Source: a virus. From it: 64,000 nt of DNA. A program made the translations under genes and the position numbers. Positions 13,481 through 50,521 of the stretch are shown piece after piece. The stretch lies in IMG/VR virus record IMGVR_UViG_3300029425_000240; one strand, 5' to 3'. Numbering within the stretch: position 1 is the first letter of the stretch; the number at the start of each line of letters is the position of its first letter. The notes under the pieces are model-generated. The model did not search any database, was not told where the DNA came from, and saw nothing but the letters and a program-made list of their open reading frames with translations.

Positions 13481-13730
13481 GCTATCTTGATAGCTCACGC
13501 TTCGCGCTCGTGATACCTTGCCGTATCGGCTCGGTACCAATTTGCGCAGCAAATGTCAAACGAAGCCGTAAGGCTGAGTGGTTCGGCGAACTTGCGTTCG
13601 TCATCACCAGACGTTGACTGCCGTCCAGCAATGAAGCGTGTTTCGAATGGGGATTCAGACCCGCGTGCGAAGTTAAGACCTGAACCTTTGACCCGCGGAC
13701 GACTTTTTGTCAGCCGGGGGTTTTCGCCCT
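13481..13730. repeat. mosaic hairpin-repeat cluster R1 (modules C-A-B)
   Basis: GGTACCAATTTGCGCAGCAAATGTCAAACGAAGCCGTAAGGCTGAGTG (module A) and GTGCGAAGTTAAGACCTGAACCTTTGACCCGCGGACGACTTTTTGTCAGCCGGGGG (module B) recur at other loci; module B forms the last ~20 codons of ORF 13673-14497. Confidence 0.7.
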
Positions 13731-14497
13731 TCGTAAATACTTTGTTTCATTGCTGTATCTAGCGCTATAGCCCATATCACTCCAAAGCACATTGCGCTTA
13801 GCATAAAAATACTTGCGCCCATATTCACGAACAGTCCTGAAATGCAAGCAACAGCAGAAACTAAAGCATTTGCCCAATTTCTTTTCAATAGAAAGATAAG
13901 CAACACAATTAGCATCCCTGCAATTGGAAAATACGCCAACCACCCTTGCTGCAATGGGCTTAACATTAAATGACAGTCTCCTACATGTAAAATTTCAAAA
14001 ATGGCTTTTTTTACTTTTTCGAAATACCATGCACCTTCTCCTGCATTATTAAAGACAGAATCCCACTGCTTATCGTTTAAATACAGCGCCATTTTAAACA
14101 ATGATTTTTTATTTTGTACATTGTCTGGCAAATTTAATGCAAATAAAAACGCATGGCGGTTTGTTTTAAATGACAGCACGTATTCAAAATTCGACATCAC
14201 GCGCTGTAGCTTACTGTTCCATGTATACGCTGTATTAACAAGATAATTTATAAAATACGTGATTAACAACATGATTCCAATATACACCGGAAAGAATAAA
14301 TTTACTTTTGCTGTTTCCGTCTTTTTTTTATTCTTTTTTATCCCTATTACCCAAAATAGTCCCTTCACCGTTGACCCGATAATCACTGCCGAACAAAAAG
14401 CGACAAAAATAACAGACCATGCGATTGACGTTGCACCAAAATATTTTTCAAAGAAATAAGAAGACTCAGCAAGCAACGATTTTAATATTCTCAACAC
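13673..14497 (-). CDS. polytopic integral membrane protein (274 aa)
   Basis: GTG start after AAGGAGGG RBS; at least 5 hydrophobic helices; last ~20 codons lie inside repeat module B (13641-13730), so the true C-terminus is uncertain. Confidence 0.5.
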   Translation of the reverse strand: MLRILKSLLAESSYFFEKYFGATSIAWSVIFVAFCSAVIIGSTVKGLFWVIGIKKNKKKTETAKVNLFFPVYIGIMLLITYFINYLVNTAYTWNSKLQRVMSNFEYVLSFKTNRHAFLFALNLPDNVQNKKSLFKMALYLNDKQWDSVFNNAGEGAWYFEKVKKAIFEILHVGDCHLMLSPLQQGWLAYFPIAGMLIVLLIFLLKRNWANALVSAVACISGLFVNMGASIFMLSAMCFGVIWAIALDTAMKQSIYEGRKPPADKKSSAGQRFRS

Positions 14498-23994: not shown

Positions 23995-24032
23995 AAAAAA
24001 ATATCGGCACGGCTAGGTTAAAAAGGGATTCA

Positions 24033-24046
24033 TTTCGCATATTAAA
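24033..24046 (+). promoter_or_regulatory. conserved upstream box, plus orientation (TTTCGCATATTAAA)
   Basis: 45 nt upstream of plus-strand ATG 24088; orientation follows gene strand. Confidence 0.5.
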
Positions 24047-24087
24047 AGAAAGAAATAAAAAATATCGGAAAAAGGAGTTAAAATACA

Positions 24088-24768
24088 ATGGGAATATTAA
24101 ACGATTATGAAGATGTCCTGCTTGGAAACCGGCAGCGCATACCGACAAGCTATTTTTTGTTTGACAAAAAGGGAAACGAGAGGATTGCACTTTCTGTAAT
24201 CCGATATGCGATAGAGAATTTATTAGGATGGGATATCCACAATGCAATAAAGCTATTTAATAAAAATTACATTTCATTTATGAAACTTGACCAGATGGTA
24301 AAATACATTGCGTTTCCATCTGATGTTACCAAGGATGATACAGAATATATACTTTATCTTCTTTATCCTCGCTATGTGGATTACGACGTAAAAAGGTATA
24401 CACTTCGTGTATATGATAAGGTAATGGCAGGAGAGGGGCGATACCCAAAGGACTATATGTACGGATACTTAGGTATGCTTCGCGCCAAAATATGTCTTCA
24501 ATACGTAATCAACAAAACATGTATGTTCAAATCAGAAGATGAACTATACAGGTTCTTTTCTTCAAAAGAGTGTATTAAATATTTAAAACAAAATAAATTA
24601 TATCAATTATATATCAGTTTTTACGCAACACCGCTGGAATACATGCACGACAGCATGCCGTCTGCAGTGAAAAATGATTTTCTTTTTCATAACTATATGT
24701 TCATGTCAAAATATGAACAATTAGAGGATATAAAGCGGGAATCCTCGGCAATTAAATTACCGAGATGA
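24088..24768 (+). CDS. hypothetical protein (226 aa), plus-strand island
   Basis: AAAAAGGAG RBS; plus-oriented conserved box 45 nt upstream; own terminator. Confidence 0.55.
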   Translation: MGILNDYEDVLLGNRQRIPTSYFLFDKKGNERIALSVIRYAIENLLGWDIHNAIKLFNKNYISFMKLDQMVKYIAFPSDVTKDDTEYILYLLYPRYVDYDVKRYTLRVYDKVMAGEGRYPKDYMYGYLGMLRAKICLQYVINKTCMFKSEDELYRFFSSKECIKYLKQNKLYQLYISFYATPLEYMHDSMPSAVKNDFLFHNYMFMSKYEQLEDIKRESSAIKLPR

Positions 24769-24805
24769 AAGCGCGAAATAAATAAAAGTATCGTTTACGA
24801 TTTTT

Positions 24806-24842
24806 ATCTTCGTGTCCAGATATGGATGCGAAGATTTTTTAC
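24806..24842 (+). terminator. rho-independent terminator after plus-strand 226-aa gene
   Basis: ATCTTCG..CGAAGAT stem followed by TTTTTT. Confidence 0.55.
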
Positions 24843-24886
24843 TTCCATACAGAAATTTTTCGCAAAAAACGACCGGTCTGTAAATT

Positions 24887-24901
24887 TTTCGGCATATTAA
24901 A
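24887..24901 (+). promoter_or_regulatory. conserved upstream box, plus orientation (TTCGGCATATTAAA) in front of tnpB
   Basis: 35 nt upstream of tnpB ATG 24933, after terminator 24806-24842. Confidence 0.5.
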
Positions 24902-24932
24902 TATGTAATGAAAAGGCAAGGAGGTGAGACGA

Positions 24933-26534
24933 ATGGCAAAGGCGAGAAGACGCAAAGATACGCAGTTTGAAACTTCTATGACGAAAAGTGTATTTCTGTA
25001 TGGCAGCCCGAATAAAGACAAATCTAAAATCATCCGGGATATGCAGAATGAATTTACAAAGATGGTAAATGGATATATCAGACTCCTTGCGGGTAATGAT
25101 AAATTTACACTTCAAATCGTAAAAAATGATAAGAAGAGCAGTGACATCCGCAAGTTTGAAAAATCCATCCGTCCGAAAAATGCAAATTCTGCATTCTCTC
25201 AGAATGCCTTTGACATGGCGGTGACCCATCTTTCTAACCGTATGGATAGCATCCGGCAGGATATGTATACAGAAGAACAGTCAGTCTTTACATCATCAAA
25301 AGTCCTGTTTGCAATGTCCATTGATTCCAAGACGAAGTCTGAGATGCTGAGCACTATGAAACAGATTGCGTCTAAAACAAAGAAAGACAAGGCTTTCTAT
25401 GAAGACTGTATCAGTATCCTGAATGAAATGTCAGACGACGAGTTTACATTTAAACAGGTGGAATTCATGGATATGTATATCAGTTTATCAATGGAATACC
25501 GTGTCCCAGAATTAAGACGGGCGCATATGCCTCTTGACAGCAGGCTGATGAAGATTGAAGTATCAACAGATACCGTCATGCCATATGTGATTAAGATAAG
25601 CGACGCTTTACATAAAAACGCAGAAAGAATCGTAATACCGATTAACACAAGCAGACATCCTGCCAATAAAATCAAATCACATAAAATGGCCGGTACGGTC
25701 ATGGCGTCAATTGATGAAAACGGAATCCTGCAGGTCGGATGGAGTTATGAGTCAAAAATGAAACAGCCAAAGACTTCAAATGTGGTAGGCGTTGATGTCG
25801 GTATCTCTGACACACTGCATACATCTGAAGATAAAGCAATCGGCAGCATGAAGCCGGTGATTGCTTTTTACCACGATACAGTGGAAAAGTCATTCGCTTC
25901 GCTGTCTGACATGAGAAATAAAAAACGCAGTATCAGCCATTACCTGCGAAGACATAAGGCCCTTCCGGAAGATGTGAGACGTTCTCTCATCAAAAAGATG
26001 GACCGGCTTGACCAGATGATTCAAAAGGCTGATGCCCCATACCGCAAGAAGCGCTGCTATTATGAAACACTTGACCATGAGATTAAATCAAGCATAGACA
26101 GATATATAGAATCAATCTCACATGATACCCTGACAGTCCTAGAAAAACTGGATATCAGGGAATTTAACAAAAGCCGTAAGTCTAACGGTATGATGTCAAC
26201 ATTTGCGAGAGGGAAGCTGCAGAAGAAGCTCATGGAGACTTTAAACTGGTATGGCTATGATTTCAAGGAAATTATACCGGATTACACCAGCCAGACATGT
26301 CCGGTATGCAGCCATCTTGAAAAAGACAACCGCAATGGCAAGTCTTTTAAATGCAAGTGCTGCGGATATGAAGCGGATGCGGATTATGTTGGAAGCCTGA
26401 ACATCAAGGCAAGAATCGACGACCAGGAAATACAGGAGATATGCGAAAAGTATAAGTATAAACATAATGAGTTACAGAAGAATCTTAAGATGATATACAA
26501 ATCACGTAACGACCAATACAAAGCAGCGGCCTGA
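24933..26534 (+). CDS. tnpB: TnpB-like RNA-guided endonuclease (IS605 OrfB / Cas12-ancestor family), RuvC triad intact
   Basis: RuvC-I VGVDVGISD, RuvC-II LTVLEKLD, Zn finger CPVCSH...CKCCG, RuvC-III ADADYVGSLNI; ATG 24933 after AAGGAGGTGAGACGA (track starts at GTG 24924); no adjacent tnpA. Confidence 0.8.
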   Translation: MAKARRRKDTQFETSMTKSVFLYGSPNKDKSKIIRDMQNEFTKMVNGYIRLLAGNDKFTLQIVKNDKKSSDIRKFEKSIRPKNANSAFSQNAFDMAVTHLSNRMDSIRQDMYTEEQSVFTSSKVLFAMSIDSKTKSEMLSTMKQIASKTKKDKAFYEDCISILNEMSDDEFTFKQVEFMDMYISLSMEYRVPELRRAHMPLDSRLMKIEVSTDTVMPYVIKISDALHKNAERIVIPINTSRHPANKIKSHKMAGTVMASIDENGILQVGWSYESKMKQPKTSNVVGVDVGISDTLHTSEDKAIGSMKPVIAFYHDTVEKSFASLSDMRNKKRSISHYLRRHKALPEDVRRSLIKKMDRLDQMIQKADAPYRKKRCYYETLDHEIKSSIDRYIESISHDTLTVLEKLDIREFNKSRKSNGMMSTFARGKLQKKLMETLNWYGYDFKEIIPDYTSQTCPVCSHLEKDNRNGKSFKCKCCGYEADADYVGSLNIKARIDDQEIQEICEKYKYKHNELQKNLKMIYKSRNDQYKAAA

Positions 26535-38282: not shown

Positions 38283-39179
38283 TTAGCCAATTTTGAAATC
38301 ATCTAAGTCGTCATCTTCAAAAGATTCACTTTCGATTTCCTGATTTCTTTCTTTTTTGATAATGTGCGAAGTTAAAACCGGAGCGCTTGACCCGCGGACG
38401 ACTTTTTGTCGGCCGGGGATTTCCTGTTCTCCATTAATAATCCGCGCTTCCCTCCTGTGGCCAGTTCTTAGACTCGGTGCCTCCTGTTTCTTATCAGTAT
38501 TAACGTTATCTAAAAGTTCCTGTGTGCTGTTATACTCTTCGTCTTCTTCCTCATCTTCTTCCTCGTCTTCTTCATACTCATCCTCTTCATTCGTCGGCAA
38601 TTTGTCAGCAAAACTTGATTCGTTATCGAACTCAGGGCGTGAATTTAAGCCTTCATGAAAAGCTGAAACCGCAGGACCTGGCTCACAGACGATATCATCG
38701 GCCGAGTCCCCTTCGCTCTTTGCTGATTTATTGTGACTCTCTCTTGCTTTTTCTCGTTCCGGTTTCTCTTTAACATCTTCATGAGCGTTATTTCTATTTC
38801 CAATGTTTAACGCCTTTTTTATCGCGTTATTATGCATCTTCATGATACTTGTATCACTGTCAACATTGATACCCTCCAATGCAGTCTCATAATCACCCTG
38901 GTCTTCTTTAAGGAAGTTAAGGGCATTGATAATCAGATTATACATATACTGATTTCCAGTATAAATATCAGCCAGCTGTTCAAGCGTGTCCTCAATGTTT
39001 CCAGTGTTTTCAAAACATTCCTGGAAATTTTCTGCATAATCGTCTGCAAGCAGTTTCTTATTTCCTGATGCTTCACTCTCTTCCTGTGAGCCCATTTTTG
39101 CCAATTTAACAAACAGAGCGAAACCAATCACGACGCAAGAAACACCGGCTCCGATTAAAATAATCACTGTATTGTCCAT
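38283..39179 (-). CDS. TM-anchored acidic low-complexity protein (298 aa); C-terminal region carries repeat module B in frame
   Basis: N-terminal TM (IILIGAGVSCVVIGFALFV), EEDEYEEDEEEDEEEDEEY run; AAAGGAGGAG RBS; repeat 38364-38418 inside the CDS. Confidence 0.5.
   Translation of the reverse strand: MDNTVIILIGAGVSCVVIGFALFVKLAKMGSQEESEASGNKKLLADDYAENFQECFENTGNIEDTLEQLADIYTGNQYMYNLIINALNFLKEDQGDYETALEGINVDSDTSIMKMHNNAIKKALNIGNRNNAHEDVKEKPEREKARESHNKSAKSEGDSADDIVCEPGPAVSAFHEGLNSRPEFDNESSFADKLPTNEEDEYEEDEEEDEEEDEEYNSTQELLDNVNTDKKQEAPSLRTGHRREARIINGEQEIPGRQKVVRGSSAPVLTSHIIKKERNQEIESESFEDDDLDDFKIG
38362..38420. repeat. repeat locus R4 (module B copy inside CDS 38283-39179)
   Basis: GTGCGAAGTTAAAACCGGAGCGCTTGACCCGCGGACGACTTTTTGTCGGCCGGGG; read in a different frame from the copy in 13673-14497. 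Confidence 0.65.
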
Positions 39180-39241: not shown

Positions 39242-41110
39242 TTATTTTTTGAAATTTTCAGACAATGATGCTACAATGTCGTCGACATCTTCAGCAGCGG
39301 CATTTTTCTTGAAATATGACCTTGCTGCAATCCTGTCATCTTTTGTACTGTAAAATTTGACATCATTGTACTTTGTGTTAAGTTTCCTCAGAATCTGGTC
39401 TTTTAGCGCTGCGCTTCTTGATACTTCAACGTAGTTTGTCTCTCCGATACGGATTCTAACTTCAAGAGCCCCGTCATTGTATACAACAAATTCTGCATTT
39501 GGGGCATGAAATTTTTTGATTTCAGCATCGGAATACTGCTCATAATAAGAAATCAGGTCCTCCGGTGTCAGGATATGCCCGATTTCGTCCAGCTGCTTCT
39601 GGATACTTTCCGCGCGTTCTTCTACTTTTTTAACTTCATCTGCTACCTGGCTTTTAACCATGTCTTCAATATTGCTTTCAATCTTTTTGATTTCACGGTC
39701 CTTCTTTCCAATGGAATCAGAGAGTTCTTTGATTTTTGATTCTTTTGTGACAATTTTTTCTGTTAATTTTTTCTCCAAGGCAATCTTCTGTCCTACCAGC
39801 TGCTGCACTTTCTGCTTCATTCTGAACACTTCTTCTTCCGCTTCGTTATCAGTTTTTCCCAGAGCATTCTGTCTATCCTGCAATGCAGCCAGCTGCTTTG
39901 CGAGCTGCTGCAGATTCAGTATATTTTTTGTATCCCTTTCCTCATATTCTTTGATTTTATTCTGCATCTCCTCTTCATGCTCTTTTACTTTCGCCTCTTC
40001 TGACTTGATTTTCTCCTGAAGTGCAGCCCTTTCTTCTTCCAATACAGCAACCTGTTTTTGTAGTTCTGCCTCTTTTTTCTGCATCTCTTTTTCTTTCTGT
40101 TCCATTTCATTTTCACGCTCAGCGACAGCCTTCTCTCGCTCAGATACCATTGCTGTTTGTTCTGACAAAATCTGCTGTACGTCTGACGCAAAGTCCGCGG
40201 AATCTTTCTTTTTTAGCGTTCTTTCATATTCCTTCATGCATGCAACTAGAGCCGTTCTGCATAAATCCAGACGCTCTTTTGTTTCATCCGGTGCGTATTT
40301 GTCTGGGCTTGAATACGTTCTTACTTTGAATACTTCATTGTCTGCGTCATAAGCAGCCATCAATTCCGGATAATTTGCATTGATGTAGGAAACATATATC
40401 GTGCCGGCATCATTATCTGCCGGAGTAGATACGGAAACCAGAATCTCCGCATCCAGAGGAAAAAAGATACAGTCTGTTGTAATTTTTTCTTTTTCGTCGG
40501 TGAGGATAACTTCATTTCCATTTAATGTCCCACCAATTTCAGCTGCTAAATCACGGAAAATTTTTTCCGCAAATTTGCGATGCTCTTCCTCATAGTCCTC
40601 TGTATCCTGCATCGTAGTGGATACCGCATGGTATGCATTATCCACGTGTACAAGATTTACGTTTTCTTCCGGGTTATAGTCTTCCTCTTTGGCCTCAACA
40701 TCTTTTTCAAGAAAGTTTACGCAGTCGTTCTCAAATGTCACCACAGCGTCCTGCATCGCATCAATGATTTCTTCTGTTGTTTTTACTGCTTCTTCTACTG
40801 TCTGGTATGAAAAAAACTTTGAAAACGCAAATACCTGGCCGCTTACATATACATTACATCCGGAATATTTTTCCATCATCTCCTGCTGAAACTCTTCTAC
40901 GGATTCTTCGGAAATCGGATACTTATATTCCTGCGTACCTTTGATTTTTACTGTATTTGGGGCACACTCAATCGCAATGCTTATACCTTTAATGCCTGTC
41001 TTTAATTCTGCATTAATCGTAATCTTGCTGTCCCCCTCTTCAATACTTGATGTGCCGGGAATATATGATTTGATTTCCTCTGCCATCCCAATTAAATAAT
41101 TTTCTGCCAT
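39242..41110 (-). CDS. long coiled-coil protein (622 aa)
   Basis: E/K/Q-rich heptad-like central region; GAAAGGAGAAAG RBS; conserved box 54 nt upstream. Confidence 0.55.
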   Translation of the reverse strand: MAENYLIGMAEEIKSYIPGTSSIEEGDSKITINAELKTGIKGISIAIECAPNTVKIKGTQEYKYPISEESVEEFQQEMMEKYSGCNVYVSGQVFAFSKFFSYQTVEEAVKTTEEIIDAMQDAVVTFENDCVNFLEKDVEAKEEDYNPEENVNLVHVDNAYHAVSTTMQDTEDYEEEHRKFAEKIFRDLAAEIGGTLNGNEVILTDEKEKITTDCIFFPLDAEILVSVSTPADNDAGTIYVSYINANYPELMAAYDADNEVFKVRTYSSPDKYAPDETKERLDLCRTALVACMKEYERTLKKKDSADFASDVQQILSEQTAMVSEREKAVAERENEMEQKEKEMQKKEAELQKQVAVLEEERAALQEKIKSEEAKVKEHEEEMQNKIKEYEERDTKNILNLQQLAKQLAALQDRQNALGKTDNEAEEEVFRMKQKVQQLVGQKIALEKKLTEKIVTKESKIKELSDSIGKKDREIKKIESNIEDMVKSQVADEVKKVEERAESIQKQLDEIGHILTPEDLISYYEQYSDAEIKKFHAPNAEFVVYNDGALEVRIRIGETNYVEVSRSAALKDQILRKLNTKYNDVKFYSTKDDRIAARSYFKKNAAAEDVDDIVASLSENFKK

Positions 41111-41159
41111 TATTTCTTTCTCCTTTCAAACTATCTAAATCAAAATTAATTTTCTCTAA

Positions 41160-41175
41160 GATAATATGCCAAATA
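41160..41175 (-). promoter_or_regulatory. conserved upstream box (TTTGGCATATTATC)
   Basis: 54 nt upstream of ATG 41110; after terminator 41215-41260. Confidence 0.5.
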
Positions 41176-41214
41176 ATTTCAAGAATCGTTGCTTTTTTGC
41201 GCATTTTTTTTACC

Positions 41215-41260
41215 GACAAAAAAAGCCCTCATCTGTGAATAAATGAAGGGCTTTTTCTAT
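41215..41260. terminator. bidirectional hairpin terminator
   Basis: AAGCCCTCAT..ATGAAGGGCTT stem flanked by A and T runs; separates surface-protein operon from coiled-coil operon. Confidence 0.55.
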
Positions 41261-41280
41261 CTATTTTTGCTAGTTTCCTA

Positions 41281-41380
41281 TCGGCTGAGCGCTTTCTGCT
41301 TGATACCTCGCCGTATCGGCTCGGCACCAGATTAAAATTGATAACTCTCCGTTCGACCCGGTACCAGATTAAAATTAATT
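41281..41380. repeat. repeat locus R5 (two module C units)
   Basis: GATACCTCGCCGTATCGGCTCGGCACCAGATTAAAATTGATAACTC...GGTACCAGATTAAAATTAA, ending on the stop codon of 41375-42235. Confidence 0.6.
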
Positions 41381-42235
41381 TTTCTTTTTCTTCTTATAAA
41401 TCAGCACTCCTGCGGCAGCACCAAGACAAACAACAATCAGCGCTCCGATTGCGATGATATTGTTCTCATCTCCTGTTTCTACAACATTATTCTGAACTTC
41501 CACGTTTCCTACTGCTGTATCAGCGGCTGCCTGTTCAGGCTGTGAATTACCTTCTGTTTCTGTCGCTTCAGGCTGTGCTGTATTGTCTTCCGGTTTTGCC
41601 TTTGGGGTAGCGGTTGGCTTCGGCGTTGCAGTCGGTTTTGGAGTTGCCGTTGGGGTTGGCGTTGCAACTTCGTTGACGGTACAGGTGTAACCTTCTACTG
41701 TCTTCATGTCTCCATCTGCACCAAGAACCGTGTAAGAGATATCGTAAGTTCCAGCCTCTTCATTGTCTACCTCATCGGTATTTAATGTTACGGAACTTAC
41801 ATAATCATCGAATGTACATCCGGATTCTGTAGGCAGTTCATCCCCTTTGTCAATCTCGATATCTTGCATGCCCTCTACATGTGATGCCAACTCAGGTTTT
41901 ACGGTGCATTTTACAGTTGCAGTCCTGTCTGTGCCATGGCTGTCTTTAAAAGTGTATTTAACATCATATTCACCCGGCTCGCTTGTATGTACACCACTGA
42001 TATCAGGTGTTATAGAATCAATATTGATATTTGATTCGGTACCTTTGAACTCTTCCTCTACGGATGGGAGGTCTTCTTTTTCGTATACCGTGATAGCCGG
42101 CAGGCTGGATATCGTTTTCGTCATATCCTGCTCATATTTTTTTTCTGCTACTTTTTTCTGGTATACAGTATAGCCCCCAGCGCCTCCAGCGGCTAAAACT
42201 GCAACAAGCACTACAGCAATTAATCCTTTTTTCAT
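41375..42235 (-). CDS. cell-surface protein with Thr/Pro linker and C-terminal sorting signal (VVETGDENN + TM + KKKKKN)
   Basis: Signal peptide; TPTPTATPKPTATPKPTATP linker; tripartite C-terminal sorting-signal architecture. Confidence 0.6.
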   Translation of the reverse strand: MKKGLIAVVLVAVLAAGGAGGYTVYQKKVAEKKYEQDMTKTISSLPAITVYEKEDLPSVEEEFKGTESNINIDSITPDISGVHTSEPGEYDVKYTFKDSHGTDRTATVKCTVKPELASHVEGMQDIEIDKGDELPTESGCTFDDYVSSVTLNTDEVDNEEAGTYDISYTVLGADGDMKTVEGYTCTVNEVATPTPTATPKPTATPKPTATPKAKPEDNTAQPEATETEGNSQPEQAAADTAVGNVEVQNNVVETGDENNIIAIGALIVVCLGAAAGVLIYKKKKKN

Positions 42236-42314
42236 TACGTTTTCCTCTTTTCTATGAATTTTTATGTATGAGGCAGTCTGTGCTGCCTCATGTAATGGTT
42301 ACATCGTTCCGTTC

Positions 42315-45300
42315 TTATCTTTTAATGAATTTCTTCAGTGAAATAAATGCTGCTGCAAGTGCCGCCGTGATTGCAGCCCCTGCTATTGCAATGATACCCA
42401 TATTATCGTCGCCGGTTTTTACTCCGCTCGTTGTGGCAACATCGCTTCCCTTCTCTGTTGCTCCTGAACCGGAACCATCAAGAGTCGTAGATGTATTTCC
42501 GTTCGGGGCTGGGGTATTATCTGTTACATCAGACGCTCCGTATTTCTTTAATTTGGTCTTGCCTTCTTCCAGGTCATTTTTGATGGCATCTTCTGTTGTG
42601 TCTGAGTTAATCTTTTCTACGTAAGAATCAAACACTTTCTGTGCATCTTCTTTCTTGTCTGAAGGGACTGTATCAAGCATTTTCTGGAGTGTACTGATTG
42701 CGTCTGCCCTTAACTGCGCAAGTTTTGATGCATCTGCCGTGCTGCTCGCATCAACCCCTGCGTCTTTCAGTGCCTGCTGACATCCATCAACAAGTTTATT
42801 GATATCATCTTCTGACGTTGCTTTGTTGATTTTGTCTGTGTAAGTATCGATAATCTTGTTCGAAGTATCTGTAGGATTTGTTACCATTGCCTTGATTTTT
42901 GCTATCGCATCCGTTTTTGCTTGTGCAAGTTTTGCTGCTGCGTCCTGCGCGTTTACAAGCTTCGCAAGGTTGTCTTTGGCAAGGTTGTAACATTTTTCCA
43001 TTGCTGTTTCATTTTTTGCTTTGTTAATGTTCTCTTTCTGCTTGTTGATTACTTCCTGTGCTTTCTGAGAATATGTATCATCTGTAAATTTGTACTCTGT
43101 AAGGAGTGCATCCAGCTTATTGTTAAATGCAGACCGCATTGATGTCAGGTATGCATTGTTGTAATCCGTTTTTGCCTGGGCGTAAATCTTAGAGCATTCA
43201 GATGCAGACTGTGCATTTTCAATGTTTGCTTTCGCAGTGCTGATGATGCTGTTCATATCTGCTGTTACATACTCAGACTTCACTTTTGACTCAAGAACAG
43301 ACAATTTACTTAATGTGTCTGCTTTCACTGATGCAAGTTCTTTGTCTTTTTTGTAAGCATCTGTAGTTGTCTGTACGTCAGATTTAAATTCCTCTACTAT
43401 ATCTTTTACTTCATCCTCTGTTGCAGCATTCTCTATTTTTTTCAGTGCGGCACCAGCCAGCTGCTGAATTGAGGCCTTCAGTTCTTCGTCAGACTGATTG
43501 TCTACAGTATTCTGAATCTCTTTCTTGGCGCTCTCTTTCACTGAACTCAGACCCTCATTATTTGTAATTTCATCTTTCAGGTCCTTGATTTCGCTTTTAG
43601 CATCACTGACAATAGTCTCTACTTCTTCTGCAGATGCTGCGGCATCAATTTTTTTAAACACCTCGTCTTTAATCTGACCTTTCTTGTCTGTTACTTCTTC
43701 ATTGTCACTTGTAATCTCATCAAGTGCTTTCTGGATTTCTGACTTTGCATCTTCTTTTACTTTTGTGAGGTCTGCATCTGGGGTTCCGTTCGTAGCTTTT
43801 ACGTAAGCGGCATAAGCCTCTGCTTTTGTTTCTCCAGAAATTGTTTCACCGGCGCGTCCGGTAAGATATGCTGTAAACTCATCCACGTCGCTCGTGATAG
43901 CCTTATGGATATCTGAAATCTTATCTTCTCCATCAGAAATATCACTTGGTGTGCCGAGTAATATGATTTCGTCAATTGTTTCCGTTGTATCGCTGTCTGG
44001 AGCAATGCCCTTAAGGTCTTTATACAAAGCAAACATTGAATCCATGTCACCTTCAATCGCAGCTTTCACATGGGCAAAAGCGCTGTCTGCGGAATTTGTT
44101 ACGGAATCAATTTCTTTCGCTGTTGTGCATGTATCGAGTTTGAAAATTAATGAACCGTATACATTCTGCAGTACGGTTGTTTTATCCTTGATTCCATCCA
44201 TAGCAGCATTGATTTTCTTCTTCGCCTCGCTCTTCAGCGCATCAATAGATGAATTATCCTGCGCAGCGATTTTTTCGATGCTTTCAATTCCTTCATCCAT
44301 TGCCTGCTTAGCGTCTTCAACTGTTTCGGATTTCTTGATTTTTGCGACTGCGTCTTTTAAGACATCGTTTGCCATGTTTTTCTGCGCATCAGTGACAAAT
44401 TCCATGGACTCAAATTTACTATACATTTCGCCAACATATCCGTTTTTAGTTACATAAAGCTGCTGGTCATTAAGGATTGATGCGGCTGTTTCTGTCAGTT
44501 TATCCAACACTGCCTGCATCTCTTCTTCATTTTTCTTCTTGTTGATTTCTGCTTTTGCTGCTTTTACGGCTTCATCCCATTTGCTTTTGAAATCTTTTTC
44601 GGTAAACTTACCTTTTTCAATCTCGCCGGCTTTTTCACACATCTGTTTTCTCAGTTCCTTAAGGACCGGGTCTTCAGATACTGCACACTGTTTATTTACA
44701 ATCTTAGTGGTACCATCAACTCCTTTGATGATGTAAGAAATCGTATACACTCCGATTGTGTTTTTGTCTACTTTTGAAGTGTCAAGTGATACAGATACGA
44801 CTTTTGTATCATCATAGGAAACGCGTGGACTCGGAAGGTCATCTCCAAGCTGGATTTCAATATCGTCAAGCCCTTCCACATATTCATCAAGGCTTCTCTT
44901 CTCTTCCTCTGCAGAATCTGAATCTGTTGTTACGTCTCCTGGGGTATCCGGGTTTGTTGTATCAGACGGCGTTTCTTCTGTAGTTGAGTCATCTGCTCCG
45001 TTCTGGTCTTCGTCTTTAGTAACTGAATCTGTGTCGTTTGGTGAGTCTGTAGCACCTGTCTCATCTGGATTTTCCGGTTGTTCGGATACCGCTTTAAAAA
45101 GAGTAGTCGGAATCGCTGTTGTTCCGCCTGCGCTGATGTATACCGTATCAGCCTCTGCAATTGTTCCGCATACAGCAAAATCTTCATCTTTACTGCTATC
45201 TGCAATCAGTGCACGTCTGATATCCCGTCCTGGCATAAAAGCGTCCTCTCCATAAACACTTTCAAATGTCAGAGCAACCTGGTATTTTGATGCAGCAATC

Positions 45301-45743
45301 GCTTCTGCACTTTCATCTTTGGTAAGTTCGGCTACCTTATCTACCATATCCATTTCGCAATTGTAAATAGAACCTGTATCTACCTCGCTGCCATTGATAT
45401 ACTCGTTTAATGAATCCGCATATCTTCCAAATACATCATCAGAAAAAACAATGTTGCTCAGTTTAGGTCCGAAATCGTCTGGTGTATCTGCGACTTTTGC
45501 ACTCTCGTCTGTTGCATAGTCAATCATTTTCTGGACAGCTGTATCAGTATCCTGTTTATCCTGGCTCTCCTCATCGTTCTGCTCTGCCTCAGACGCTCCT
45601 CCTTCTGTTTCTGGGACCTCAGCTGCGGTCTCCTCTACTGCGGTAGACTCGGAACCGTCTTCCGCTGCCATAACTACTGTGCCTGGCACAGCCATTGTTG
45701 CTGACATGCCTAAAAGCATGGCTGAAATAACTTTATTTTTCAT
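42315..45743 (-). CDS. large (1142 aa) alpha-helical/coiled-coil surface protein with C-terminal sorting signal (GVKTGDDNM + TM + KKFIKR)
   Basis: Signal peptide MKNKVISAMLLGMSATMAVPGTVVMA; long A/K/E/D-rich helical body; TAGGAGAT RBS. Confidence 0.65.
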   Translation of the reverse strand: MKNKVISAMLLGMSATMAVPGTVVMAAEDGSESTAVEETAAEVPETEGGASEAEQNDEESQDKQDTDTAVQKMIDYATDESAKVADTPDDFGPKLSNIVFSDDVFGRYADSLNEYINGSEVDTGSIYNCEMDMVDKVAELTKDESAEAIAASKYQVALTFESVYGEDAFMPGRDIRRALIADSSKDEDFAVCGTIAEADTVYISAGGTTAIPTTLFKAVSEQPENPDETGATDSPNDTDSVTKDEDQNGADDSTTEETPSDTTNPDTPGDVTTDSDSAEEEKRSLDEYVEGLDDIEIQLGDDLPSPRVSYDDTKVVSVSLDTSKVDKNTIGVYTISYIIKGVDGTTKIVNKQCAVSEDPVLKELRKQMCEKAGEIEKGKFTEKDFKSKWDEAVKAAKAEINKKKNEEEMQAVLDKLTETAASILNDQQLYVTKNGYVGEMYSKFESMEFVTDAQKNMANDVLKDAVAKIKKSETVEDAKQAMDEGIESIEKIAAQDNSSIDALKSEAKKKINAAMDGIKDKTTVLQNVYGSLIFKLDTCTTAKEIDSVTNSADSAFAHVKAAIEGDMDSMFALYKDLKGIAPDSDTTETIDEIILLGTPSDISDGEDKISDIHKAITSDVDEFTAYLTGRAGETISGETKAEAYAAYVKATNGTPDADLTKVKEDAKSEIQKALDEITSDNEEVTDKKGQIKDEVFKKIDAAASAEEVETIVSDAKSEIKDLKDEITNNEGLSSVKESAKKEIQNTVDNQSDEELKASIQQLAGAALKKIENAATEDEVKDIVEEFKSDVQTTTDAYKKDKELASVKADTLSKLSVLESKVKSEYVTADMNSIISTAKANIENAQSASECSKIYAQAKTDYNNAYLTSMRSAFNNKLDALLTEYKFTDDTYSQKAQEVINKQKENINKAKNETAMEKCYNLAKDNLAKLVNAQDAAAKLAQAKTDAIAKIKAMVTNPTDTSNKIIDTYTDKINKATSEDDINKLVDGCQQALKDAGVDASSTADASKLAQLRADAISTLQKMLDTVPSDKKEDAQKVFDSYVEKINSDTTEDAIKNDLEEGKTKLKKYGASDVTDNTPAPNGNTSTTLDGSGSGATEKGSDVATTSGVKTGDDNMGIIAIAGAAITAALAAAFISLKKFIKR

Positions 45744-45811
45744 TTCTTTTATCTCCTATTTTTTTTGCTTTCGCATATTTTTTTGCTGGTTCTTTTAGAA
45801 CTATCTGCAGG

Positions 45812-46078
45812 TATCATTTGTCAGCGGCTAAAGCCTACTGCGTTCAGCCTTTACGAGACTTGGGTAGACGCGAGCACAGCTCGCGGTATCATCAATTGAT
45901 AACTCGCCAGCAGAGCCGGACTTGTTACCTGACTTCGAACGGGGATTCCGGCCCGTGTGCGAAGTTAAAACCGGGACATTTTACCCGCGGACGACTTTTG
46001 GTCGGCCTGGGGCTTTTCGCTCTCCGTTGATAACAAAAGGGTTTGTTCCGAGTTACCAATCGGCCGTATATGCCATGC
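45812..46078. repeat. repeat locus R6 (modules C-like plus B) inside the long 5' UTR of the 1142-aa surface-protein gene
   Basis: CGCGAGCACAGCTCGCGGTATCATCAATTGATAACTC...GTGCGAAGTTAAAACCGGGACATTTTACCCGCGGACGACTTTTGGTCGGCCTGGGG; a plus-oriented copy of the promoter box (TTTCGCATATTTTT, 45768-45781) lies just 5' on the plus strand. Confidence 0.65.
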
Positions 46079-46093
46079 CTGCATGTTCTCTAT

Positions 46094-46109
46094 ATTCAAT
46101 ATGCAAAAT
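46094..46109 (-). promoter_or_regulatory. conserved upstream box (TTTTGCATATTGAA) with GTGTTACA 17 nt further upstream
   Basis: ~355 nt upstream of ATG 45743 with repeat cluster 45812-46078 in between (long structured 5' UTR). Confidence 0.45.
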
Positions 46110-46149
46110 AAATTTTTTTTTGTAACACTTTTTCTTGACAATTTATTTT

Positions 46150-46192
46150 TGTCAAAAAAAAGATGACCGGACATTATATCCAGTCATCTTTT
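46150..46192 (-). terminator. rho-independent terminator after sortase gene
   Basis: AGATGACCGG..CCAGTCATCT stem plus T-run on minus strand. Confidence 0.5.
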
Positions 46193-46197
46193 TGCAC

Positions 46198-47034
46198 TCA
46201 TTCCGGTTCTACTCTTACGCCCTGTACTACAAATCTTGTTGAAGAATCGCCTGTACATGTTGAAAGTGTAACAATCTTATCAGTTTGTTTAAATTGATAA
46301 TCTCCTGTATTTATCAGCGATTTTGCCTTCATACTTTCACCATATTCAATAGTCTCTTTTCCCGGGCCCTTAATCAAAGTGTACGTATCGCCATCCACAT
46401 TTGCCACATACATCGCAAAAATCTTATATTTATATGCTTCTTTTGGCGTGATTACCCAGAAGTATGGACTTTTATCAATGGTCTCCTGCAGCTTATATTG
46501 TTTTAATGTTCCGAACATAGAACCATTCTTCATATTGTGCCCATAAACTATGGTATTCTGGTCGGAAAAATCTTTTGTGTTCTTGCAGTCAACAAAAATA
46601 GAACCTGCGAAAATAGATTCTTTTTTGTATGTGTGATGTAAATAAAAATCATTATCACTTCCCTGGACAATCGGGTAATTAATGTTTGGTAAAGCCTCCA
46701 TATAAAGCCAACCTGCTACATCTTGATTAATGCTCTTCAACTCATCAAAATTAATTTCCAACGGTGACGTCCAATGTTTGGTCTCATGTCCTTTTGCGTC
46801 TTTCAGTTTTTTTACATCCTCCGCGTCCGCATCTCTTTCTTTGACAACCGTGTCTGCAATTTCGTTGTACTCATCGACACCCGCTTTGTATTCCATCATG
46901 ATAGAATATAATTTATAACCAGAGACAGCGGCGACCGTAATCGCAACGACAAAAATCACAATCAAGACAACGTCGCTGGCTGTCATCTTCTTTTTTTTAT
47001 TTTTTCTGCTTTCTTTCGCTCCTATCTTTTCCAT
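46198..47034 (-). CDS. sortase (class-B-like transpeptidase)
   Basis: N-terminal TM anchor, His motif IVYGHNM, catalytic Cys in TLSTCTG, downstream Arg (STRFVVQGVR); GAGGAGG RBS. Confidence 0.75.
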   Translation of the reverse strand: MEKIGAKESRKNKKKKMTASDVVLIVIFVVAITVAAVSGYKLYSIMMEYKAGVDEYNEIADTVVKERDADAEDVKKLKDAKGHETKHWTSPLEINFDELKSINQDVAGWLYMEALPNINYPIVQGSDNDFYLHHTYKKESIFAGSIFVDCKNTKDFSDQNTIVYGHNMKNGSMFGTLKQYKLQETIDKSPYFWVITPKEAYKYKIFAMYVANVDGDTYTLIKGPGKETIEYGESMKAKSLINTGDYQFKQTDKIVTLSTCTGDSSTRFVVQGVRVEPE

Positions 47035-47100
47035 TCAGGCAGCGTCCTCCTCTCGTCTGTTTTCAGAAAAAAGCAGGCTGAATATATCAGCCCGCGCTGC

Positions 47101-48336
47101 TTATCTTCCGATAAGACTATTCAGATAATTATACAGTTCAGTGCTTGTTGCCTCGTCATAATCTTGTCCGTCTGTTGTACTAAATCCAGAACTTACAAGA
47201 TGATTGTAAGCATCAATAAACGGAATGCTCAGGTTCTGATACATGTAGGTATTAAATGTTGAAATCTTCTGGTTTGAAGTGGTGCTTTCAGCAGATACCG
47301 GTCCCACTGCTACAAAATAAACAGAGGCCCCTTTGTCCTGCCACTCTTTCGCTTTTGTATTGATGGAAGATGCGTAAGCCTGGTAGTTATCAAGGTCGTT
47401 AATGCCCATACTGATAAATATTTTTGTTCCATTTCCAATCTTTGTATCTACATCCGGGTATGCCGTGTCTGTCATCCATGAAAAATCACCAGATGCAGAG
47501 CACTCCCATAAATCAGACTGCCCGCTAGCGTAGTTTGCCATCGTTCGGAATCTCTCATCACCAAGGAAAATTACCTCTGCTGGCTCCTGTGACTGTGAGT
47601 CTGAGTCCGCAACAGTAGTATCACCGGTGTTCTCGGCTTCCGTACTGTCTGTTTCATTATTTGCATCAACAACATCCGTGTTCTCTTCTGTATTTGGTAT
47701 GTCTGTTGGTATTGGAGTGGCAGTAGGTAATGGCTTTGGCGTTGAAGTCGGCATGGCATCGTTTTCATCTGTACTGCCATCTTCATCTTCGTCAGTGGAA
47801 TCACTGTCTGCATCAGCACTGTCTGCACCGTCGTCGGTCTCCGTACTGTCGTCACCGAAGTCTTCTTCGTAGTCGCTGTCTTCACTTGCGCTGTCAGCCT
47901 CAGGCGTCGGTGTCTCTGTTACTTCGGCTGTTTGCTGCTCCTGATGCGTTCCTTCATTATTTCCTTTTAATTTCTGGTATGTACATACGCCTGCCGCTGC
48001 TACGGCCGCTGCGACAATGATTGCAATGATAATGATTTTCTTCTTTCCGCCGTTTTCTTCTTCATCGTCATCGTCGTCATAATCATAGTCATCTTCTTCC
48101 TCTTCCTCGTCATGGATTATTTCTTTTTTCTCCTTTTTGGTATTTGTCCTTTCAGTGCCCGCTGCGTTGTTAGACGTAGTCTTTCTTTCAGGTTTTTTAT
48201 TAACCCGGGTCTCTGCTTCCTCCTCTCCTTCCGGCTCTTCCGGTTCTTCATCAAGGTCGTCATTGGTTCCGCCTATCATAAAGTCCTCATCTTCATCATC
48301 TTCTTCGAGATTGTAATTCTTATCTTCGTCTTTCAT
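47101..48336 (-). CDS. acidic membrane protein with C-terminal SGNH/GDSL-hydrolase-like domain (nucleophile Ser replaced)
   Basis: Central TM (IIIIAIIVAAAVAAAGV); blocks VIFLGDERF (GDS -> GDE), GIND, DGQD resemble SGNH blocks I/III/V; AGGAGG RBS. Confidence 0.45.
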   Translation of the reverse strand: MKDEDKNYNLEEDDEDEDFMIGGTNDDLDEEPEEPEGEEEAETRVNKKPERKTTSNNAAGTERTNTKKEKKEIIHDEEEEEDDYDYDDDDDEEENGGKKKIIIIAIIVAAAVAAAGVCTYQKLKGNNEGTHQEQQTAEVTETPTPEADSASEDSDYEEDFGDDSTETDDGADSADADSDSTDEDEDGSTDENDAMPTSTPKPLPTATPIPTDIPNTEENTDVVDANNETDSTEAENTGDTTVADSDSQSQEPAEVIFLGDERFRTMANYASGQSDLWECSASGDFSWMTDTAYPDVDTKIGNGTKIFISMGINDLDNYQAYASSINTKAKEWQDKGASVYFVAVGPVSAESTTSNQKISTFNTYMYQNLSIPFIDAYNHLVSSGFSTTDGQDYDEATSTELYNYLNSLIGR

Positions 48337-48375
48337 TATTTATTTTTTCCTCCTGTTCTTTCTCTGATATCGTTT

Positions 48376-48391
48376 CGATGTATGCAAAACG
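48376..48391 (-). promoter_or_regulatory. variant box (TTTTGCATACATCG)
   Basis: 45 nt upstream of ATG 48336; abuts hairpin 48391-48422. Confidence 0.35.
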
Positions 48392-48424
48392 GCCAGCGCA
48401 ACAGAAAACTGTCGCGTTGGCCGG
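48389..48424 (-). terminator. hairpin terminator after lepB
   Basis: 14-bp stem GGCCAGCGCAACAG / CTGTCGCGTTGGCC (one mismatch, one wobble); short T-run. Confidence 0.45.
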
Positions 48425-48516
48425 AAGGAGTCCTGCATATCGACATCTTTTATTTTAGCATGCCCGTCTAGACCGGGCCCTGCCCATCAGAGAGTCGTTA
48501 CAGGGTTGTTATTTTG

Positions 48517-49089
48517 TTACTTTACCACCTTGAACCCCTTCCAATACCTGAAAGAAGCCTTGGCTACTATTTGGTCAGCGGATACATATGGATTATCCCA
48601 ATACCGTGAATCTGCGGATTCATTCCTGTTGTCTCCCAACATGAAATAGCATCCCTCAGGGACATTGAATTCCATATCGGGTTCTGTCTCCATTTTTTCA
48701 CGGATAAACGAATCATCGAGTGGAGTGGAACTGTCATTGATGTAGACCTTTCCTTTTTTGATTGTTACTTTTTCCCCTGGTAGACCGATGATTCTTTTAA
48801 TATAAATCATGCTCGGGTCATCCGGGAAATGAAACATAACAATATCAAATCTTTCCGGGTCGTGTCCAAACTTATAGGCGAGACGGTTGCCGATTACCCT
48901 ATCGCCAGTCATCAGTGTGTTTTCCATTGATTCGGATGGAATATAAGCATTCATAAGTACCTGCGTATATAATACGACCATTGCAACCATTGTCATAACG
49001 GCTATCGTCAGGTATACAACTATAGTATGCCGAATATTTTTTAAATCGTTCGTTTTTTCTTCTTCTTTTTTAACTTTATCTTCTTCCAT
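48517..49089 (-). CDS. lepB: signal peptidase I
   Basis: SESMENTL (Ser box), KRIIGLPGE, GDNRNESADSRYW motifs; N-terminal TM. Confidence 0.8.
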   Translation of the reverse strand: MEEDKVKKEEEKTNDLKNIRHTIVVYLTIAVMTMVAMVVLYTQVLMNAYIPSESMENTLMTGDRVIGNRLAYKFGHDPERFDIVMFHFPDDPSMIYIKRIIGLPGEKVTIKKGKVYINDSSTPLDDSFIREKMETEPDMEFNVPEGCYFMLGDNRNESADSRYWDNPYVSADQIVAKASFRYWKGFKVVK

Positions 49090-49107: not shown

Positions 49108-50490
49108 CTATTCTGTTCCTTGTGCAGTCTGTCCCGTGATATTGGAATCATCGTAGACTATAATCGGCCAGTTGTCCTGAAATGTGGTGAATATTGCATT
49201 CATAGATGTCTCATCAACAGCAATGCATCCCTGTTTTACACCATTCGATGTTGCCGTTGCTGAAATATCTTCGTTTCCGGAGAAACCAGGCATCGCCGCA
49301 GTATCATCAAACTGATAAACAGCACCATCTCCGAAATACATGATATTTTTTGTACCGTCTTCTGCTGCTGCCTCTCTCAGCTTTAATCTATAGAATCCGG
49401 ATGAGATGTCTGTGCCAAGCCTTGCCTGACATTGAACCACTGGATTTCCATCTACGTATAAGACCACGCTTCCATGTGACTTATCAATTTCCAGATAAGA
49501 ATGACCGATGTCGTCTGAATTCCTGCTGACTGTACTCTGGCTGTATGTTGGATTCACAACATCAATTGTCTTATCTGTAATCATCTGTTTTAAATCCTGT
49601 GCCGTCTTTTTTATATCTATCTGCCACCCATAATCGCCTCCGGAAATGCTGGAAGTCCGATTATCATAGGTAACAAAGCTTCTTTCATTTCCAATTGTAT
49701 CATATTTTTCCGCTAATGATTTCACATACTCTTCAATCTTTTTCTGGCTCAGTTTAAAATCTTTACTGAGCATATTCTTTCTTATCGTTTCAACATCCAC
49801 AGTTTCTTTTCTATCCCCAAAGTCATATGTTATGATAACATCTTTGATTGAGTTTAAAAAGTCACACTGCTTTTGCAATTCTTTTTCATCTGTTTTTTCT
49901 GCTTCTTTGTAGCATCCTTTGTCTTCAAGGTTTACGCTCTTGTGCCATTGCCTTATGGACGTTTCTATCACCTGTTTTGCTTTCTCCCTGTCGAGTTCAG
50001 TTCCTATGACCTGCTGCGCTACCTGGTAAAACCCATCTGTGTCAACGATACGTGCGCTCTCAGGGCTCACCATATTGTGCATACATTTTAATTTCGCGAT
50101 TGCTTTTTGTATCTTTGCTGAATCTATCGCATAACTTTCCTCATCAAGATTATGTTCCTTTATTTCTGGCATAAACCATAATCTATAATCTTGATTGTTG
50201 ATGATGTCCACTAGTCCTTCTTTTCCATTGAACGTCATTCCTACATCTTTTGCAGTTAGTTTTTCGACCCCTCCATTCCTCGTATCTATGGCGATTGCGT
50301 AACTGCTGACTTCTTTTGATAACAGTGCCTCGGCCTCGTCAACCGTCTTAAACGCACAATGAAAACCGTTGATTGTAGTGCCTATTTTAAAATGTGTCTG
50401 AAAATACGCCATTCCCAGAAAATAGGATGTGCCCAGTATAATACATAGCGCGCATAACATTGTAATGATTATCTTTCTTGTTGTCTTCAT
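49108..50490 (-). CDS. membrane-anchored protein with C-terminal L,D-transpeptidase-like (YkuD-type) region
   Basis: N-terminal TM; C-terminal ...SHGSV...KQGCIAVDETS resembles the YkuD active-site region; start re-assigned to ATG 50490 after AAGGAG (track starts at 50511). Confidence 0.4.
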   Translation of the reverse strand: MKTTRKIIITMLCALCIILGTSYFLGMAYFQTHFKIGTTINGFHCAFKTVDEAEALLSKEVSSYAIAIDTRNGGVEKLTAKDVGMTFNGKEGLVDIINNQDYRLWFMPEIKEHNLDEESYAIDSAKIQKAIAKLKCMHNMVSPESARIVDTDGFYQVAQQVIGTELDREKAKQVIETSIRQWHKSVNLEDKGCYKEAEKTDEKELQKQCDFLNSIKDVIITYDFGDRKETVDVETIRKNMLSKDFKLSQKKIEEYVKSLAEKYDTIGNERSFVTYDNRTSSISGGDYGWQIDIKKTAQDLKQMITDKTIDVVNPTYSQSTVSRNSDDIGHSYLEIDKSHGSVVLYVDGNPVVQCQARLGTDISSGFYRLKLREAAAEDGTKNIMYFGDGAVYQFDDTAAMPGFSGNEDISATATSNGVKQGCIAVDETSMNAIFTTFQDNWPIIVYDDSNITGQTAQGTE

Positions 50491-50521
50491 TTTTTTTCTG
50501 CTCCTTTGCATATCGTTTTCT

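Follow-up and report, generated by a model that had tools for sequence, protein, structure and literature searches.

A 64-kb window of the IMG/VR virus record IMGVR_UViG_3300029425_000240 (the whole stretch of DNA that was analysed, to which all coordinates refer unless a locus is named) contains a sortase gene and, next to it, the genes of two surface proteins of 1142 and 286 amino acids (aa) whose C-terminal sorting signals lack proline. The window is part of a conjugative, plasmid-like element, large and very prevalent, whose hosts are Blautia-like Lachnospiraceae of the gut. All genes of the module lie on the minus strand. In the order of transcription they are a PG_binding_4 gene, signal peptidase I, a 411-aa gene, and the sortase, followed by a terminator, a leader, the 1142-aa gene, the 286-aa gene, and a hairpin (Table 1). 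The original prediction had the sortase two genes downstream of the surface proteins; it is the gene directly upstream of the operon that encodes them, the presumed cargo.

The 1142-aa protein ends in ...TTSGVKTGDDN-MGIIAIAGAAITAALAAAFISL-KKFIKR, in which the helix comprises 22 uncharged residues, and the 286-aa protein ends in ...QNNVVETGDENN-IIAIGALIVVCLGAAAGVLIY-KKKKKN, with the motif VVETGDENN. These were the only two open reading frames (ORFs) in the window that combined a T-G motif with a hydrophobic segment and a basic tail. The tripartite, proline-free signal predicted for both proteins was borne out and is strongly conserved. When homologues were checked for an ordinary LPXTG motif, Pro was absent from motif position 2, with Val in both proteins and in 113 of 113 complete homologues. 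The homologues of the 286-aa protein (50-100% identity) carried V[EAQ]TGD[ESK][NT]N in 64 of 64 complete sequences, and those of the 1142-aa protein (28-99% identity) carried V[KRQ]TGD[DENSV][NH] in 49 of 49. V252, T254, G255, D256, and N259 were invariant across 30 aligned 286-aa sequences, as were V1108, T1110, G1111, and D1112 across 20 aligned homologues of the 1142-aa protein (29-92% identity). The invariant V, T, G, and D are embedded in otherwise variable or disordered tails, and the protein bodies diverge to 28-50% identity. With TIGR01167 (LPXTG_anchor, cutoff 15.9 bits), the 286-aa protein passed at 22.4 bits and the 1142-aa protein scored slightly below the cutoff at 15.1 bits. TIGR03065, the sortase B signal of the QVPTGV class, was not among the NCBIfam matches at E<=0.1 of either protein. 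In both tails, T-G is followed by Asp and a polar stretch to Asn or Pro before the helix (TGDDN, TGDENN), as in clostridial SrtB signals. The charged residues between TG and the helix, which had been regarded as unusual, are present but are normal for clostridial SrtB signals such as SPKTGDNTN, PPKTGDSTT, and NVQTGDQSN (PMC4155245). This conservation indicates that the predicted recognition signal is a Lachnospiraceae version of the clostridial class B signal, with the same TGD-x-[NT]-N tail and Val in place of the near-universal Pro.

The 278-aa sortase scored 181.1 bits against TIGR03064, above the curated equivalog cutoff of 153.75 bits. Its catalytic triad lies in conserved motifs (YGH166N, TLSTC260, and TR267F), and the His and Cys motifs align with the corresponding motifs of Listeria monocytogenes SrtB. 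In a sequence search of the Protein Data Bank (PDB), 15 of 15 matches were SrtB-family chains, including 5jcv, 5b23, 2oqw, 5gyj, 1ng5, and 3psq. The best homologues were SrtB of L. monocytogenes, Clostridium perfringens, Bacillus anthracis, Clostridioides difficile, and Staphylococcus aureus, and that of Streptococcus pyogenes was also matched. The enzyme, which had been called class-B-like, is a true class B sortase (MEROPS C60B) by its TIGR03064 score, its His-Cys-Arg triad, and the SrtB structures. The element sortases were 62-100% identical to each other and at most 54% identical to chromosomal ones.

The exact sortase sequence was present in 1544 indexed blocks of public assemblies, with contigs reaching 403 kb and the same neighbours throughout. 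The order of sortase, big protein, and small immunoglobulin (Ig)-like protein was retained in four diverged lineages, L087, L100, L101, and L102, whose sortases were 79%, 62%, 80%, and 78% identical to the window copy, respectively. L101 is an NCBI assembly in which the protein is named Ruminococcus sp. The full order in the diverged relatives was PG_binding_4, signal peptidase (where present), a gene X, sortase, big protein, Ig protein of ~280 aa, a ~620-aa protein, and a leucine-rich repeat (LRR) protein. The gap between sortase and cargo was only 1-157 nucleotides (nt) in L100-L102. In L100, the big protein was just 28% identical and its start lay 1 nt past the sortase stop. The genetic linkage of sortase and substrates therefore held as predicted: a true class B sortase adjoins the cargo genes, and the arrangement survives deep divergence. 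On these comparisons, the sortase is far more conserved than its presumed cargo, in which only the signal is fixed.

The occurrence of the signal beyond this locus was surveyed with a 39-position signal profile against 1.84 billion representative proteins, which gave 94 matches at E<=1e-3. A word-indexed search with the 39-43-aa signal profile returned 6 short fragments only, and it was the exhaustive search of representatives that gave a useful survey. Among the 75 matches outside both families, the Pro position was occupied by V in 54, P in 13, and A in 4, a 54:13 ratio of V to P that is biased and uninformative on true frequencies because Val was invariant in the query profile. The consensus of the wider signal was [SA]V[KQ]TGD[NESD][TN][NP]. 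Members of the V-x-TGD clusters included MCI5901119.1 of Blautia sp. SUG67, which is named "LPXTG cell wall anchor domain-containing protein", RGN02359.1 and NSC70779.1 of Blautia obeum, and WP_253288320.1 of Blautia sp. MSJ-19. Two of these clusters, including the SUG67 protein, are flanked by tRNA-synthetase, Maf, and Hsp90 genes and have an ordinary chromosomal setting. The SUG67 assembly also encodes a chromosomal class B sortase (locus L026) that is 50% identical to that of the element. The chromosomal class B sortases of Blautia and other Lachnospiraceae had no adjacent substrate at 78 of 80 loci and an adjacent one at 2, and they were often located a few kb from lgt. An ORF near chromosomal Blautia sortases with xLSTSQ, a helix, and a basic tail was considered as a new substrate and rejected; it is Lgt itself (PF01790, E=5e-65), a false positive of the regular expression.

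Since the signal is found in chromosomal Blautia proteins, some of which are automatically annotated as LPXTG anchors, V-x-TGD appears to be a native Blautia sorting-signal type that annotation pipelines already file under LPXTG. The original prediction of a dedicated sortase-substrate pair was not sustained, as the same signal is present in at least 54 other protein clusters, including chromosomal Blautia proteins in housekeeping neighbourhoods. Nor can the motif be called undescribed, because the 286-aa protein passes the LPXTG_anchor cutoff and the NVQTG of C. difficile CbpA is a precedent in the literature, though CbpA is regarded as a non-substrate. A literature search on Val-type pentapeptide signals and on the sortases of Blautia found nothing besides the C. 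difficile CbpA papers. At other class B sortase loci, with sortases 33-43% identical, the adjacent cargo ends in TVTTGDNTN, AKKTGDE, and TPVTGDIG (Table 1), and therefore further non-canonical x-x-x-T-G-D variants are found beside class B sortases.

We then modelled both cargo proteins with AlphaFold. The 1142-aa model (pLDDT 78) consisted of a helical head (60-205), an acidic disordered linker, a Rib-like Ig domain (285-356) related to the Ig domains of the 286-aa protein, ~700 residues of helical-bundle repeats, and the sorting signal. The best matches in a fold search were weak (helical repeats of S. aureus EbhA, the N-domain of BibA of group B Streptococcus, and Rib domains). PF16403 was sub-threshold in this protein, and a PDB sequence search gave no match at E<=1. 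The 286-aa model had a pLDDT of 77 overall and above 90 over residues 30-190. It showed an N-terminal helix (5-43), two tandem Rib/cadherin-like Ig domains, a disordered Pro/Thr linker, and the sorting signal. With Foldseek, it matched tandem Rib domains at E=2e-8, and also InlK, SraP, and cadherin repeats. Signal peptides had been predicted for both proteins. That of the 1142-aa protein is classical, with a site between VVMA and AE, but no A-x-A site is present at the N-terminus of the 286-aa protein. This N-terminus (MKKGLIAVVLVAVLAAGGAGGYTVYQKK...) was modelled as one continuous helix over residues 5-43, and it may be an uncleaved signal anchor; in that case, the mature protein would be anchored in the membrane by its N-terminus and linked to the wall by its C-terminus. 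In L085 (GCA_046994865.1), an otherwise identical copy of the element, a single 222-aa gene (L085:14745-15413, compared with window 39242-42235) replaces the 286-aa and 622-aa genes, and therefore the small Ig protein is dispensable or exchangeable. From the models, both proteins look like ordinary Gram-positive wall-anchored fibrils.

The big protein had also been likened to PrgA. Similar to PrgA, PrgB, and PrgC of the Enterococcus plasmid pCF10, the cargo would be wall-anchored surface proteins on a conjugative element, for which a role in mating or exclusion is possible. However, the 1142-aa protein had no sequence match to PrgA in the PDB, and PrgA was not among the 50 fold matches listed, none of which reached E<=0.001. 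In addition, anchoring in the case of pCF10 depends on a canonical LPXTG signal and on the class A sortase of the host.

The genes upstream of the sortase were examined in the same relatives. The PG_binding_4 gene keeps its position in L081-L086 and in L100-L102. Signal peptidase I has both its Ser box, SESM (52-55), and its Lys box, IKRI (97-100), and with these boxes intact it is predicted to be catalytically competent. It is kept in L081-L086, L101, and L102, and there is none in L100. Pfam and NCBIfam searches assigned the 411-aa protein to no family. Its slot is filled by a 382-411-aa gene in L081-L086, L101, and L102; in L100, without the signal peptidase, genes of 86 and 265 aa separate the PG_binding_4 gene from the sortase. 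The N-terminus of the 411-aa protein is very acidic, a single transmembrane helix is present, and the C-terminal domain (…VIFLGDERF…ISMGINDL…) has motifs faintly reminiscent of SGNH hydrolases, but the Ser is missing.

Table 1. Features of the sortase module in the window, in the order of transcription, and cargo genes at other class B sortase loci.
Feature	Position	Strand	Basis
467-aa membrane protein with PG_binding_4 domain, first gene of the module	49108..50511	-	PF12229, E=6e-13
Signal peptidase I (S26)	48517..49089	-	TIGR02227, 144.9 bits; PF10502
411-aa acidic single-pass membrane protein, between signal peptidase and sortase	47101..48336	-	No family
Class B sortase, 278 aa, N-terminal membrane anchor	46198..47034	-	TIGR03064; His166, Cys260, Arg267
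Intrinsic terminator 3' of the sortase gene (AAGATGACTGGA-loop-TCCGGTCATCTT, then T run)	~46154..46190	-	Read from sequence
Leader of the substrate operon, ~410 nt	45744..46153	-	Contains GC-rich element of ~100 nt
Gene of 1142-aa secreted fibrillar protein	42315..45743	-	AlphaFold model; weak fold matches
Sorting signal of 1142-aa protein (V1108-K-T-G-D-D-N, helix, KKFIKR)	42318..42422	-	Sequence; homologue alignment
Gene of 286-aa surface protein	41375..42235	-	PF16403, E=6e-10; model; Foldseek
Sorting signal of 286-aa protein (V252-E-T-G-D-E-N-N, helix, KKKKKN)	41378..41482	-	TIGR01167; homologue alignment
Terminator-like hairpin closing the two-gene substrate operon	41226..41249	-	9-pair stem, then T run
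Cargo with non-canonical signals beside other class B sortases	L094:7021-9555; L057:7524-11954; L090:5510-7678		

The sortase had been thought to share a long structured 5' untranslated region with the surface proteins. Since an intrinsic terminator follows the sortase stop, the 454-nt gap between this stop and the start of the 1142-aa gene forms the leader of the substrate operon alone. The terminator hairpin also surfaced as a terminator-like stem in sub-threshold Rfam alignments. The GC-rich element in the leader (45934-46033) has further copies in the window at 13642-13734 and 38363-38440, all on the minus strand and in gene orientation, and others at L102:15862-15956, L102:5061-5122, and L101:19752-19808. 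Its 24-mer core, GACMAAAAGTCGTCCGCGGGTMAA, was found in 3 copies against 0 expected. The copies lie upstream of the 1142-aa gene, a 2440-aa lysozyme-domain gene, and a 423-aa BspA-LRR gene; in L102, a copy is also located upstream of the sortase. The leader had a fold z-score of -2.5, and the consensus of the GC-rich element formed a hairpin in which covariation was almost absent (a single compensatory pair among 6 sequences). Rfam gave no leader family, either at the gathering threshold on the whole window or in E-value mode on 45650-46250. A c-di-GMP-II riboswitch, considered by analogy with C. difficile sortase substrates, had no Rfam support. Possible identities of the GC-rich element are a leader with a regulatory function, a site recognised by the sigma factor that the conjugative element encodes, or a small repeat. 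A 298-aa ORF (38283-39179) overlaps the copy at 38363-38440 with its 3' end as called; the gene may in truth be shorter, with this copy intergenic and upstream of the 423-aa LRR gene.

The gene content of the window includes a type IV coupling protein (T4CP), topoisomerase III, a RecD2-like helicase, a ParM-like ATPase, a single-stranded DNA-binding protein (SSB), and a protein similar to the beta subunit of DNA polymerase III. It also encodes a sigma factor, FtsH, Sir2, the 2440-aa lysozyme-domain protein, and a TnpB insertion. The GC content of the element is ~40%. Gut conjugative megaplasmids named "Hodor" have been reported to encode class A, B, and C sortases (bioRxiv 10.64898/2026.02.21.707213). 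The element resembles Hodor in kind: both are very prevalent conjugative elements of more than 200 kb in gut Bacillota, with a class B sortase, giant surface proteins, TnpB insertions, and Phage_lysozyme2 domains. However, the class B sortase of Hodor lies beside trigger factor and SecYEG, its cargo proteins exceed 7300 and 2600 aa, and its GC content is 44.6-47.1%. None of the Hodor neighbours was present within 10 kb of the window sortase, and the Hodor markers Rep_3, ParA, and ParB are absent from the window. On this analysis, the element may be set beside Hodor by general features, not by marker-gene membership. A megablast search of PLSDB with window 41000-48500 gave no match, and the element may represent a lineage of gut megaplasmids that is undescribed or was described only recently. 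The TnpB/Cas12f-like gene (PF07282; 24924-26534, plus strand) is probably an IS605-family insertion, because it is the only large plus-strand gene and coincides with the sole local reversal of GC/AT skew (24001-26000).

The module was next compared with known sortase systems. Class E sortases accept LAxTG, an accepted precedent for a functional signal without Pro at position 2; these enzymes differ from the present one in class, in their occurrence in Actinobacteria, in having Ala for Pro, and in lacking the TGD tail. In S. pyogenes, the FCT pilus loci combine a class B-type sortase, SipA, and pilins with EVPTG or QVPTGV signals (TIGR03065). Since class E enzymes accept LAxTG and the class B-type pilus sortases of S. 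pyogenes accept [EQ]VPTG, signals that depart from Pro at this position are not unprecedented. The present locus is similar to the FCT loci in its class B-type sortase (3psq was matched), in Val at position 2, and in a gene of the signal-peptidase family. It differs in that TIGR03065 was not matched, Pro is wholly absent, the peptidase boxes are intact, and the substrates do not have pilin folds.

Further parallels are found in C. difficile. The substrates of C. difficile SrtB carry [S/P]PxTG followed by D and polar residues (SPKTGDNTN, SPKTGDSTN, PPKTGDSTT), and cleavage rises at least 2-fold when TG is followed by the native residues (PMC4155245). Like this enzyme (substrates CD0386, CD2831, CD3246, and CD3392), the element sortase belongs to the class B family, with 5gyj and 4ux7 matched at E ~1e-25. 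The presumed cargo resembles the C. difficile substrates in its adhesin-like character and in a signal in which T-G, D, and a polar stretch with a final N precede the helix. Unlike the C. difficile system, Val replaces Pro at the second position and the sortase is plasmid-borne beside its presumed cargo; sequence identity is low, and C. difficile SrtB was only the sixth-ranked PDB match. CbpA of C. difficile (CD3145, NVQTGDQSN) has the identical pattern x-V-x-T-G-D-x-x-N with a helix and a basic tail, and some homologues of the 1142-aa protein carry NVKTGDEN, close to the CbpA signal. CbpA is chromosomal without a dedicated sortase, whereas the signal here is sortase-linked and invariant across two protein families. 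The RadA/SrtB locus of Ruminococcus gnavus uses LPQTP, a different variant (PMC8615915).

We propose that the locus is probably a self-contained surface-display module, consisting of signal peptidase I, sortase, and cargo, that uses a Val-for-Pro variant of the clostridial class B signal. From what is known of these families, the module would contribute its own signal peptidase I and class B sortase to the 1142-aa fibrillar protein and the 286-aa tandem-Ig protein of the downstream two-gene operon. Sec would export both cargo proteins, and the C-terminal helix and basic tail would retain them in the membrane. Cys260 of the sortase would then cleave V-x-T-G-D between Thr and Gly, and the cleaved cargo would be joined to the peptidoglycan stem peptide. 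C. difficile SrtB transfers its substrates onto meso-diaminopimelic acid (meso-DAP). Wall anchoring through such cleavage by a mobile Blautia-type class B sortase is the most likely mechanism judged from the sequences. Because chromosomal Blautia surface proteins carry the same signal, the element sortase is probably a mobile copy of the host-type anchoring enzyme and not an orthogonal system. The architecture of the cargo suggests a likely role in cell-cell or cell-substrate adhesion aiding conjugative spread or colonisation. Several points weigh against this proposal. The role in adhesion or conjugation derives from architecture alone, and the sortase and cargo are separate transcription units in the window, with a terminator between them. 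No biochemical evidence for any sortase cleaving V-x-TG was found in the literature. With the sole tested example, the NVQTG of CbpA, two laboratories did not obtain cleavage by C. difficile SrtB (PMC4155245, PMC4371152), and CbpA is regarded as a probable non-substrate (PMC5569036). The excess of Val over Pro in the survey is affected by the query bias noted above. Since chromosomal Blautia proteins bear the same signal, a host sortase could suffice and the element enzyme might have other targets.

The last point leads to another explanation, in which a chromosomal housekeeping class B sortase of the host anchors both proteins and the element enzyme would be redundant or would act on other substrates encoded elsewhere within the 200-400 kb of the element. 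V-x-TGD proteins in chromosomal housekeeping contexts of Blautia, class B sortases in the same genomes, and the terminator that divides sortase from cargo in the window are consistent with this; the scarcity of chromosomal loci with an adjacent substrate (2 of 80), together with a position a few kb from lgt, suggests generalist enzymes. However, all element lineages that were compared keep sortase and cargo side by side, even where the cargo is 28% identical, and in L100 the two genes abut. A linkage of this kind would be difficult to account for if the genes had no functional tie, and we consider the host enzyme unlikely to be the whole explanation. It is not mutually exclusive with the module proposed here, for which a host sortase is a plausible alternative or additional catalyst. 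We also considered that the C-terminal segment is an uncleaved transmembrane anchor, as proposed for CbpA, with V-x-TGD kept for another reason such as membrane-proximal structure. The failure of C. difficile SrtB to cut NVQTG peptides (PMC4155245, PMC4371152) is in agreement with this, as is the score of the 1142-aa protein slightly under the LPXTG_anchor cutoff. The negative assays, however, were made with another sortase, and in one of these studies a non-native GG came after the motif. Moreover, two unrelated families share four invariant residues within a disordered, otherwise variable tail, these residues recur in 54 further clusters, T-G lies at the canonical distance from the helix, and a sortase gene is linked to the cargo genes, which together make a simple membrane anchor improbable.

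Two further possibilities concern what the sortase does with its signal. The class B sortases of Blautia and the element may have switched specificity from Pro to Val, reading an extended V-x-T-G-D-x-N and discriminating against [SP]PxTG. We put this forward tentatively, as the less probable form of sortase-dependent anchoring. If true, V-x-TGD would be a distinct, widespread, and unrecognised class of sortase signals in gut Lachnospiraceae, the switch would explain why C. difficile SrtB rejects the NVQTG of CbpA, and it would offer an orthogonal sortase/tag pair for protein ligation. The module may otherwise build a covalent pilus or fibre in the manner of the S. pyogenes FCT loci, in which a class B-type sortase and a signal-peptidase homologue polymerise [EQ]VPTG pilins. 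The gene set is similar (a signal-peptidase family gene, a class B sortase, and two substrates), Val occupies the second motif position in both, and SrtB of Streptococcus parasanguinis produces AbpA ladders (PMC4974636). However, the signal peptidase retains its catalytic Ser and Lys boxes, unlike the inactive chaperone SipA. The 286-aa protein consists of Rib/cadherin-like Ig domains, with no pilin described among the 50 fold matches listed, the 1142-aa protein is a helical-repeat rod, and no lysine of a pilin motif was identified. With cargo folds other than those of pilins and a signal peptidase whose catalytic boxes are intact, a role in pilus assembly is very improbable.

What is new in this study is the Val-for-Pro form of the clostridial class B signal tied to an element-borne sortase; class B anchoring itself was already known. 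To our knowledge, sortase signals are taken to have a nearly invariant Pro at position 2, and motif-based predictors ([LNSP]PxT[GN]) would miss V-x-TGD proteins. The Val signal was present in 54 further clusters whose named members are from Blautia, an abundant human gut genus with a barely studied surface proteome. The locus offers a compact and testable enzyme-substrate pair, the 278-aa sortase and two natural peptides (QNNVVETGDENN and TTSGVKTGDDNM), which bears on whether V-x-TGD is a real sortase signal and on the status of C. difficile CbpA. These results suggest that conjugative elements of very high prevalence in the gut come with secretion-processing enzymes of their own, a signal peptidase and a sortase, and presumably display adhesins independently of the host.

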